From: a virus | Lineage: Duplodnaviria > Heunggongvirae > Uroviricota > Caudoviricetes | Direction: 5' to 3' (one strand) | Virus record (IMG/VR): IMGVR_UViG_2660238269_000008 | DNA length: 43,719 nucleotides | Shown here: one piece after another, positions 1-1,894 of the stretch | How the letters are laid out: every line of letters begins with the position of its first letter | Numbering within the stretch: the first letter of the stretch is position 1 | The notes under the pieces: generated by a model | The model's database searches: none | Told to the model about the DNA's origin: nothing | Seen by the model: only the letters and a program-made list of their open reading frames with translations | Made by a program: the position numbers and the translations under genes

Positions 1-804
1 TTAAATAACCAATTTAACCCATTCCTGACCACGAGTATCGTTATAGCGATCGGTGGTTGCCTGGACTTTATGTCCCAGTAATGTTTTTGTATCGATACCC
101 TGCGCACGGTACAGCCGTTCTGACAGGGAGCGTTGTTCATGAAATGTTGGTGGTGTTTTTCCTGCTGGTGGAATTATTCCAGCCAGGTCCCGTGCTTTGG
201 CAAAGTAATCGCTCAGGTTGTCTTTACTCATCGGCTTTGGTTGTTTCTGGTGCCGACTATGGATTAGATATGGACTTAATATTCTGTCTCTGCACCCATC
301 AATAACTTCTTTTAACGTTATTCCAATGGCATCACAGCGTAGTGTAAGCGGTAACGCCAGACGCATTCCGGTTTTTCCCTGGGTGATATGCAAGTGTTCG
401 TTCCACACATCTGAAAAACGCATGTGGCAAATGTCATCACGGCGCTGACCAGTAACAATCGCAAGAAGCATTGCGTTACGGATAAAGTGTTTTTCTGGCG
501 TTGCGTTGTAAATTTTTGCCAGTCTTCCAGGGTGAGTCTGGCTCTGGTTACTTTAGGGATCGGTTTACGGGTGGCCTCCGGAGGATTCCATCCAGGAGGA
601 ACTTCCCCTGCATGCTGTGCTTCTTTATAAATATCAACCCATAATCCGCGATTTACTCTTGCTGTGCTGACCATGTCTTTATCCATCCACTCGTCCAGTA
701 TTAATGCAAAGTCTCTTACCTCCAGTTCTTTCAATGGGTGGTTTCCCAGGCGGGAAACCAGGTATGCAGCCATTCGCACTTTTTCTTTGTGGGTTGTAGC
801 TGCA
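1..804 (-). pseudogene. int: Phage integrase (tyrosine recombinase), central and C-terminal part; truncated upstream by IS1 and frameshifted near 524-528
   Basis: Minus-strand ORFs 1..471 and 318..818 translate to lambda-Int-like sequence (LLAIVTGQRRDD, HEQRSLSERLY, LLGH) but in different frames; the switch maps to a T5/A5 run; stop codon at 1-3. Confidence 0.8.
796..804. repeat. IS1 target-site duplication, left copy (gtagctgca)
   Basis: 9 bp immediately left of the IS1 end are identical to 1572..1580. Confidence 0.85.
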
Positions 805-859
805 GGTGATGCTGCCAACTTACTGATTTAGTGTATGATGGTGTTTTTGAGGTGCTCCA

Positions 860-1135
860 GTGGCTTCTGTTTCTATCAGCTGTCCCTCCTGTTCAGCTAC
901 TGACGGGGTGGTGCGTAACGGCAAAAGCACCGCCGGACATCAGCGCTATCTCTGCTCTCACTGCCGTAAAACATGGCAACTGCAGTTCACTTACACCGCT
1001 TCTCAACCCGGTACGCACCAGAAAATCATTGATATGGCCATGAATGGCGTTGGATGCCGGGCAACAGCCCGCATTATGGGCGTTGGCCTCAACACGATTT
1101 TACGTCACTTAAAAAACTCAGGCCGCAGTCGGTAA
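860..1135 (+). CDS. insA: IS1 protein InsA
   Basis: 91-aa [43 protein letters not shown]... matches IS1 InsA. Confidence 0.95.
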
Positions 1136-1536
1136 CCTCGCGCATACAGCCGGGCAGTGACGTCATCGTCTGCGCGGAAATGGACGAACAGTGGGGCTAT
1201 GTCGGGGCTAAATCGCGCCAGCGCTGGCTGTTTTACGCGTATGACAGTCTCCGGAAGACGGTTGTTGCGCACGTATTCGGTGAACGCACTATGGCGACGC
1301 TGGGGCGTCTTATGAGCCTGCTGTCACCCTTTGACGTGGTGATATGGATGACGGATGGCTGGCCGCTGTATGAATCCCGCCTGAAGGGAAAGCTGCACGT
1401 AATCAGCAAGCGATATACGCAGCGAATTGAGCGGCATAACCTGAATCTGAGGCAGCACCTGGCACGGCTGGGACGGAAGTCGCTGTCGTTCTCAAAATCG
1501 GTGGAGCTGCATGACAAAGTCATCGGCATTATCTGA
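1054..1536 (+). CDS. insB: IS1 InsB frame (InsAB' transposase is made by -1 frameshift from insA)
   Basis: ORF ...[47 protein letters not shown]... matches IS1 InsB; overlaps the insA 3' end. Confidence 0.9.
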
Positions 1537-1571
1537 ACATAAAACACTATCAATAAGTTGGAGTCATTACC

Positions 1572-1580
1572 GTAGCTGCA
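1572..1580. repeat. IS1 target-site duplication, right copy (gtagctgca)
   Basis: Identical to 796..804. Confidence 0.85.
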
Positions 1581-1894
1581 ATGTCTCCATTTTTCAGTCG
1601 CGAATCCTGTATTTTCAGATATCGATCAACCCATGCCTTTAATCTGATACCCCGACGTTTTGTTGCTGATGGACTTTCATCAATTTTGCGCATGAAATAT
1701 TCTGCTTCTGCTGCAGCTATTCGCTGATTGGCTGTTGAAGCGATTTTTTCTGCCTTGACTTTGTCTGTCCCGAGTCCGTGAAATTTTCCAGTCACAGGAT
1801 TTTTATACTGGTAGTAAACCTTGCCAGTTCTGCGATCAAACTTTTCGTAAAGAGCTGCTACGTCAGTACTGTTTTTTCGTGGCCTCGGTGACAT
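1572..1894 (-). pseudogene. int: Phage integrase, N-terminal part separated from the rest by IS1
   Basis: ORF 1550..1894 (MSPRPRKNSTDVAALYEKFDRRTGKVYYQYKNPVTGKFHGLGTDK...) resembles Int N-terminal arm-binding region; removing IS1 plus one TSD copy (776 bp) restores frame with 318..818. Confidence 0.8.

Follow-up and report, generated by a model that had tools for sequence, protein, structure and literature searches.

IS1 in a lambdoid prophage integrase gene marks an Escherichia coli lineage, and a second lesion in the same gene is very probably an assembly error

Introduction

Insertion of an IS element into the integrase gene is a textbook route by which a prophage becomes defective and non-excisable. 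The first lines of a Caudoviricetes record in IMG/VR (IMGVR_UViG_2660238269_000008; the whole stretch of 43,719 nucleotides that we analysed is called the window here) appear to hold such a case. A preliminary description of this DNA, made from its letters alone, held that the integrase had been inactivated twice, by an IS1 element with a perfect 9-bp target duplication and by a frameshift in a short homopolymer. Two lesions in one gene raise the question whether both arose in the bacterium or whether one of them belongs to the assembly. Comparison with other assemblies of the same locus makes one overall answer highly likely: IS1 has split a lambdoid int gene in a lineage, and the one-base deletion in the T run is an artefact of assembly.

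Results

IS1 and its target-site duplication

The features of the int region are collected in Table 1. Read directly from the window sequence, the inserted element is 767 bp long. A scripted check found that its terminal inverted repeats, GGTGATGCTGCCAACTTACTGAT and GGTAATGACTCCAACTTATTGAT, match at 18 of 23 positions and that identical 9-bp direct repeats, GTAGCTGCA, flank it on both sides. The boundaries that the preliminary description had given to the element and to the two 9-bp copies are exact to the base. Several features by which IS1 is recognised are present: a length close to 768 bp, imperfect inverted repeats some 23 bp long, a 9-bp duplication, and an A6C motif with insA in the 0 frame and insB' in the -1 frame.

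Identity between the window copy and the IS1 elements of phages P1 and SfIV is 98.7-99.6% (99.6% for Shigella phage SfIV). The window copy resembles canonical IS1 (IS1A-type, 768 bp) in its inverted repeats, insA, insB' at -1, the A6C motif, the Pfam domains and the 9-bp duplication. It differs from canonical IS1 in being 767 bp long, without one G near the 3' end of insB', and in having the last InsB residues replaced. Owing to GG in place of GGG, the InsB' open reading frame is 160 aa long rather than 167, seven residues short. This C-terminal defect is probably a sequence error and not real, because all other assemblies of the same IS1 copy that cover the site (7/7) have GGG. Of the 9383 E. 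coli records in which IS1 is found, only 4 to 7 have the GG form.

Table 1. Features of the int region, in window coordinates
Feature	Position	Strand	Remarks
int 3' part, most of the catalytic domain	1..512	-	stop codon 1..3; R226, K249, H327, R330, H350, Y359; out of frame with the upstream part here
T5 run (A5 on the coding strand); T6 in relatives; -1 frameshift	513..517	-	int nt 602-607, codons 201-203
int middle part, core-binding region	518..804	-	int nt 315-601; flanked by IS1 and the frameshift site
Target-site duplication, left copy GTAGCTGCA	796..804	.	int nt 315-323; single copy in the empty site of 89-3156
IS1 element	805..1571	+	IRL 805..827, IRR 1549..1571; transposase genes antiparallel to int; IS1A-family in the RefSeq annotations of matches
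insA, 91 aa	860..1135	+	zinc-ribbon and HTH domains; Pfam PF03811, PF12759
insB' reading frame, DDE transposase domain	1054..1536	+	PF03400 (DDE_Tnp_IS1); premature end ...HDKVIGII*; GG at 1524..1525
A6C programmed -1 frameshift motif, fuses InsA to InsB'	1111..1117	+	TTAAAAAACTC at 1108..1118; insB' frame is -1 relative to insA
Target-site duplication, right copy GTAGCTGCA	1572..1580	.	sequence read
int 5' part, codons 1-108 including the Arm DNA-binding domain	1572..1894	-	ATG 1892..1894
Excisionase gene, 89 aa, intact	1863..2132	-	overlaps the int start

The empty site and the reconstructed integrase

Deletion of IS1 and one copy of the repeat fuses 1581..1894 to 1..804 and gives one minus-strand frame that begins with the ATG at 1894. 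Complete E. coli genomes searched by megablast included copies of the locus that lack the interruption. In a global alignment, the reconstruction is identical to the int-xis locus of E. coli 89-3156 (NZ_CP027366) at 1424 of 1425 positions, the sole difference being the T run at window 513..517, which has six Ts in 89-3156 and five in the window. In 89-3156 the site is empty and GTAGCTGCA occurs once. The 9-bp repeat in the window is a true target duplication and not a chance repeat, because the empty site holds one copy. In 89-3156 the prophage lies between potC and potB and is annotated with an integrase (372 aa, WP_028985807.1), an excisionase and an exonuclease. The N-terminal int segment does join the rest in frame once IS1 and one copy are removed, as the preliminary description had proposed, and the intact locus of 89-3156 agrees with it.

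Judged from its domains and active-site residues, the gene is a tyrosine recombinase of the lambda Int family, 372 aa long when intact. The intact integrase matches the Arm DNA-binding domain PF09003 at residues 1-64 (E=1e-21) and PF00589 (Phage_integrase) at residues 194-363 (E=1.9e-18; 67.3 bits against a cut-off of 27.1). The lambda Int structure 1z1b matches it over residues 26-371 at E=2.5e-54. The alignment to lambdoid integrases that the earlier reading had proposed as a check, when run, favours its assignment of the gene, with both Pfam domains and lambda Int recovered. Residues R226, K249, H327, R330, H350 and Y359 align with lambda R212, K235, H308, R311, H333 and Y342, respectively. 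The intact gene has the same three-part layout as phage lambda Int; the structures 1z1b, 1z1g and 5j0n align with it at E ~1e-54, the six active-site residues are kept, and xis overlaps the start of int as it does in lambda. It is a different allele from that of lambda: its relatives are found at potC, whereas the lambda attB lies near gal-bio, and the gene in the window is split by IS1.

A single uninterrupted frame for all the int domains is absent in the window, where IS1 comes after codon 108 and the frame shifts at codons 201-203. The insertion, in codons 105-108, parts the arm-binding domain from the remainder of the integrase, and all catalytic residues are downstream of both lesions. 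The ORF at 1..471 matches PF00589, and the alignment to lambda Int puts all six catalytic residues in 1..512. On the other side of IS1, the 5' ORF runs six codons into the element and stops at 1550..1552. The resulting 114-aa stub (1550..1894), with 108 native and 6 IS1-encoded residues, also contains PF09003.

Lambda Int works only when a single polypeptide contains its arm-binding, core-binding and catalytic domains. By analogy, IS1 alone would prevent a working integrase from being made, and the prophage would be unable to excise or re-integrate by itself because no functional integrase is made. The earlier conclusion that the prophage probably cannot excise by its own integrase thus stands on IS1 alone, as deduced from the domain needs of lambda Int. 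The excisionase on its own would presumably be useless, as Xis needs Int. For rescue, another prophage in the cell would have to supply in trans an Int of matching specificity, or IS1 would have to be excised precisely, a rare event. The att sites are outside the window, whose first three bases are the int stop codon.

Spread of the insertion

The IS1-int junctions were located in other assemblies by exact protein look-ups of the ORFs that span them. For the right junction, the exact 114-aa int-IS1 fusion ORF was found on 6 other contigs (JGI, ENA, NCBI), with identical junction DNA. Contigs L004 and L005 equal the window over 7.1 and 6.4 kb, respectively, except at one base, GG in the window IS1 against GGG. 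For the left junction, the IS1-int boundary at 804/805 was read on at least 13 other contigs, namely AFDW01000014.1, NEMG01000084.1, and contigs from seven Logan assemblies, three ENA metagenomes and one JGI metagenome. AFDW01000014.1, from STEC_EH250, spans window 1..3772 and with it the whole IS1-int structure. Both C-terminal products predicted for the T6 form are on record as proteins, one of 257 aa that begins at the first ATG and one of 272 aa that starts inside IS1. Exact searches with a left-junction 40-mer in viral and genome contigs and with a 32-mer in metagenome contigs returned no match.

EH250 is an O118:H12, stx2b strain isolated from a child (PMC3491183). The agreement of these assemblies indicates that the IS1 insertion is real and not a misjoin, and that it is a marker of a lineage that includes STEC O118:H12 EH250. 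The insertion allele is already public, in about 20 other assemblies, and there is nothing mechanistically new in it.

The one-base deletion in the T run

The reading frame of int does shift in the window, as the preliminary description had stated, but the shift is at 513..517 and not at 524..528, about 11 bases away, where the window reads CTTCC and contains no homopolymer. With the A5 allele, the frame ends after 64 wrong residues. All the other contigs with the same junction (13/13) have T6 and are otherwise 100% identical to the window over ~830-3770 nt. A 95-nt query across the run had no gap-free match in the complete E. coli genomes that hold the region, i.e. T5 was found in 0 of 1632; the best 12 of these 1632 genome matches all span 96 nt, corresponding to T6. 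A pattern that permitted either T5 or T6 recovered 11 JGI/ENA metagenome contigs, all with T6 and none with T5. The two ORFs specific to T5, 318..818 and 318..773, had no record in protein look-ups, which fits T5 being private to the window record.

These sequence comparisons strongly favour a residual homopolymer-deletion error of long-read assembly, rather than biology, as the source of the T5 deletion. E. coli genomes mostly contain the int stretch once, with a median of 1 place per genome. Poor polishing in repeats, the usual cause of residual errors, suits IS1 and gene J better than int.

Other one-base deletions in the record

Compared with the 89-3156 prophage, the window has further one-base deletions in G/C runs, which, like the missing G in IS1, had escaped the preliminary description: at 33667; at 41574 in tail gene I; and at 42357, 42460, 43155, 43462 and 43681 in gene J. 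The run at 33667 is C4 in the window and C5 in JWSO02000007.1. Over 41300..43719, the 12 closest complete genomes (12/12) have six more bases than the window and are without the I/J deletions.

Only two assemblies, JWSO02000007.1 and NEMG01, are on record with exactly the tape-measure protein of the window. NEMG01 (L035), a draft assembly of this lineage in many fragments, has T6. JWSO02000007.1 (L044; GCA_001188105.2, 567 kb) equals window 27035..43719 except for C5 at 33667. It shares the six I/J deletions with the window and ends 733 nt beyond it, inside J. The shared I/J errors place the window in the same assembly as JWSO02000007.1 or in a sibling one. Relative to 89-3156, JWSO02000007.1 has 19 indels in its last 2.9 kb, 17 of which are deletions, and their density climbs to the contig end. 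Counted in nt from that end, they are at 2879, 2096, 1993, 1298, 991, 772, 636, 541, 521, 470, 448, 321, 311, 242, 208, 95 (three bases) and 41. This rise is best read as the mark of an under-covered, unpolished long-read contig end and not of gene decay. Real decay of I and J was considered as an explanation of the deletions in these genes and was rejected on account of the climb in density to the end of L044 and of their presence in 0 of the 12 closest genomes.

Frameshift and indel errors that fragment genes are described as a known problem of long-read assemblies (PMC12007338). The window resembles such errors in that it has one-base deletions in homopolymers, without substitutions, with alleles that are unseen in other assemblies; it differs from them in that the int site is in a usually single-copy region and far from a contig end. 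Over ~24.6 kb compared with lineage mates (L004, L034 and L044), the window has 0 private substitutions and 3 private one-base deletions, namely T5 in int, GG in IS1 and C4 at 33667. A G7 run at 6539 is common to the window, L004 and L005, and is a true polymorphism because L004 and L005 share it. The truncated InsB had no record in a protein look-up, and the InsAB' fusion and the I and J fragments had none in the protein collection. The claim that the integrase was inactivated twice is not supported by these comparisons: T5 was seen in none of the other assemblies compared at the run, and the record carries the signature of assembly errors elsewhere. The preliminary description had itself allowed for an assembly error at the homopolymer, and the comparisons lean that way.

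We also considered whether the ends of the window are contig ends. Instead, each end coincides with the stop codon of a called gene, that of int at 1..3 and, at 43717..43719, the TGA that closes a frameshifted J fragment; the window thus seems to be a prophage call cut back to gene borders.

Lesions in related potC-site prophages

Several related prophages at the potC site carry lesions of their own in or next to int. In L010, a separate 9-bp duplication, ACGCAATGC, accompanies an IS1 inserted at int nt 644-652. In TW10598, IS1 is in xis, and in CFSAN004176 an IS600-family element is beside int. Three contigs, L015-L017, break inside int, and we take their break ends to be IS3-family or IS2 sequence. 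In L012, there is a nonsense codon, Q201*, in the codon where the A run begins. Two assemblies, L011 and L013, have A7 in the same run. In L011 the exonuclease gene is split and int itself contains three indels; in L013 the exonuclease gene is again split, and potC is fused to potD. The A7 alleles look like errors too, because L011 and L013 have other broken or fused genes. Compared with IS-disrupted, 'grounded' E. coli prophages, the window is no different in mechanism; its insertion site at int nt 315-323 is common to one lineage.

Discussion

The two lesions of the int gene have different standings in our analysis, and other accounts of them have to be weighed. The IS1 'insertion' could be an assembly chimera produced by a repeat-induced misjoin. 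E. coli genomes carry multiple copies of IS1, at a median of about 10-11 places, and the metagenome contig L004 joins the IRL side to gltD-proximal DNA instead of int, as might be expected of a misjoin. A chimera is scarcely conceivable, however, in view of the perfect 9-bp target duplication and the exact reconstruction of the empty site, the independent recovery of both junctions in many short-read, metagenome and isolate assemblies, and the EH250 contig that covers the whole structure. At the other extreme, both lesions could be real, the strain having lost one A of A6 by replication slippage after the arrival of IS1, in the course of neutral pseudogene decay. The deletion is, after all, present in the sequence. 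A homopolymer is a natural substrate for slippage, and with IS1 in place the selection against a deletion would be gone; it is biologically plausible for a gene that is dead already to gain a second, neutral mutation, and together with the slippage site this counts against an artefact. We nonetheless consider it unlikely that both are real, since the deletion is found in 0 of the 13 other assemblies that carry the IS1-bearing allele and that show no further difference from the window, and neither in the 1632 complete genomes nor in the 11 metagenome contigs. The record also has two more private one-base deletions (GG in IS1 and C4 at 33667) and 0 private substitutions over ~24.6 kb, a ratio that is unexpected from natural divergence, and the indels in the tail genes are graded toward the contig end in JWSO02000007.1.

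The A6 run could also be a hypermutable, phase-variable tract that switches the integrase, which would explain A5, A7 and the adjacent Q201* together. Three assemblies do have indels in the run, and a fourth has a stop in its first codon. Six bases are short for a contingency locus, however; A5 is absent from all 1632 complete genomes, the A7 assemblies L011 and L013 look error-prone (with other indels and broken or fused genes), and switching would be without effect in the window, where int is already dead via IS1. These points make a phase-variable tract extremely improbable. A broader proposal, that the potC-site integrase is recurrently inactivated under selection for 'locking in' the prophage, with the A6 run as a hypermutable switch, is very unlikely.

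The reading that we prefer, a real IS1 insertion and an artefactual T-run deletion, suggests the following course of events. A lambdoid prophage with relatives at the E. coli potC locus carried an int gene encoding an intact integrase of 372 aa. In an ancestor of the lineage, IS1 transposed into int nt 315-323 (codons 105-108), antiparallel to int, with duplication of 9 bp. The arm-binding domain was thereby reduced to a 114-aa stub, and the core-binding and catalytic domains were left without a promoter or start codon. Lacking a functional integrase, the prophage would have lost its own excision or re-integration; Xis is intact but depends on Int. The insertion is now fixed in the lineage that includes STEC O118:H12 EH250. 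The missing A/T at 513..517, the missing G in IS1, the missing C at 33667 and the indels in I and J are most probably all errors of long-read assembly.

The biological weight of the insertion is small, as it is a known kind of event and the allele is already public (STEC EH250). The record is of more use as a caution. Scans of raw sequence read long-read homopolymer errors as pseudogenising mutations. Among claims of prophage decay from this record, only the IS1 insertion is safe; the frameshifts in int and in genes I and J, like the shortened InsB, are not countable as biology without read support. As for the early region of the prophage, ten of its proteins were examined and each occurs on at least 1000 contigs; the exonuclease and an 87-aa protein are also widespread.

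Probable errors and polymorphisms in the window

Each of six G/C runs in tail genes I and J has cleanly lost one base, and both genes are broken as a result. None of these deletions was found when the 12 complete E. coli genomes that are closest were compared. The same six deletions are present in JWSO02000007.1, a 567-kb sibling contig near-identical to the right part of the window, where such indels go on past the window and become ever denser toward the contig end. The pattern resembles the end of a long-read contig left unpolished rather than gene decay.

The frameshifts seem to bear on the extent of the window. 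Its first three nucleotides are the stop codon of the integrase gene (int, minus strand), and its last three (43717..43719, plus strand) are the TGA at which a frameshifted fragment of J ends. Since both ends are stop codons of gene calls, the window looks like a prophage prediction cut at gene boundaries. The right edge seems to follow from the spurious J frameshifts, and the att sites fall outside the window.

Three other runs differ in length. The one-base deletion between the major capsid and FI genes is private to the window record, JWSO02000007.1 being otherwise identical. The IS1 copy within int is 767 bp long in the window, and the shortened G run near its insB' end changes the InsB C-terminus to ...HDKVIGII*, giving an ORF of 160 aa versus 167 aa. 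GGG stands in each of the seven other assemblies of this IS1 copy in which the site is covered; among 9383 E. coli records, no more than 4 to 7 contain the GG form of IS1. The G7 run is set apart from the other length differences by its presence in L004 and L005, two assemblies with the same IS1 insertion in int (lineage mates). Judged from this comparison, it is therefore a real polymorphism.

Features discussed in the text, with window positions
Feature	Position	Location or comparison
One-base deletions in G/C runs	41574, 42357, 42460, 43155, 43462, 43681	Tail genes I and J
C4 run	33663..33667	Intergenic, major capsid gene/FI gene; C5 in 89-3156 (E. coli with intact integrase-excisionase locus) and JWSO02000007.1
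GG instead of GGG	1524..1525	Inside IS1, near insB' end
G7 run	6533..6539	Intergenic, upstream of repressor-like gene; G6 in 89-3156
Island gene outside the window (lineage mates), 397-aa AAA_21-type ATP-binding protein		Between int stop and potC
Island gene outside the window (lineage mates), 180-aa hypothetical protein		Between int stop and potC
Two phage-borne tRNA genes	18055..18216	Late region, downstream of DNA methyltransferase gene
About 3 tandem units of ~260-270 nt each	21168..21848	Upstream of esterase gene
Copies related to the tandem units	near 18965..19251 and 20937..21061
SASA/NanS-type esterase gene, 654 aa	22209..24173	Downstream of tandem repeats

The integrase region in related prophages

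The int/xis (integrase/excisionase) module is independently disrupted in related potC-site prophages of other assemblies (L010, L012, L013, L015-L017, L002 and H29). The disruptions include an IS1 that interrupts int at nt 644-652 and has the duplication ACGCAATGC (L010), an IS1 within xis (TW10598, L002), an IS600-family element in CFSAN004176 (H29) and the nonsense codon Q201* in int (L012). In L015-L017, the contigs break off inside int, at ends that we take to be IS3-family or IS2.

In four metagenome samples, contigs of 1.1-1.2 kb (L039-L042) carry the int 3' fragment flanked on both sides by IS1 left-end sequence, because a second IS1, in inverted orientation, follows the int stop at a distance of 177 nt. 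In L004, the int-IS1 copy is joined at its IRL side to gltD-proximal DNA. Either IS1 has mediated a rearrangement in this sub-lineage, or the assembler has made joins through the IS1 repeat.

Beyond position 1, outside the window, lineage mates carry a two-gene island between the int stop and potC, as seen in a comparison that covered L034, L031, L035, L036 and L001. Other potC-site prophages are without such an island, and potC directly adjoins, 167 nt past the int stop. Lying at the edge of the prophage, the two genes could form a small module for cargo or defence.

Late region

The methyltransferase-tRNA layout is similar to the late-region layout of Stx phages; the annotation of the close relative showed no stx genes. 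One tRNA (anticodon CAT) is assigned to Met by ARAGORN and its homologue is annotated as Ile in RefSeq; the other is tRNA-Arg (TCG). The tandem units show 70-91% identity to the reference copy, and one related segment lies ~2 kb upstream of them. These repeats are also found in the 89-3156 prophage (NZ_CP027366).
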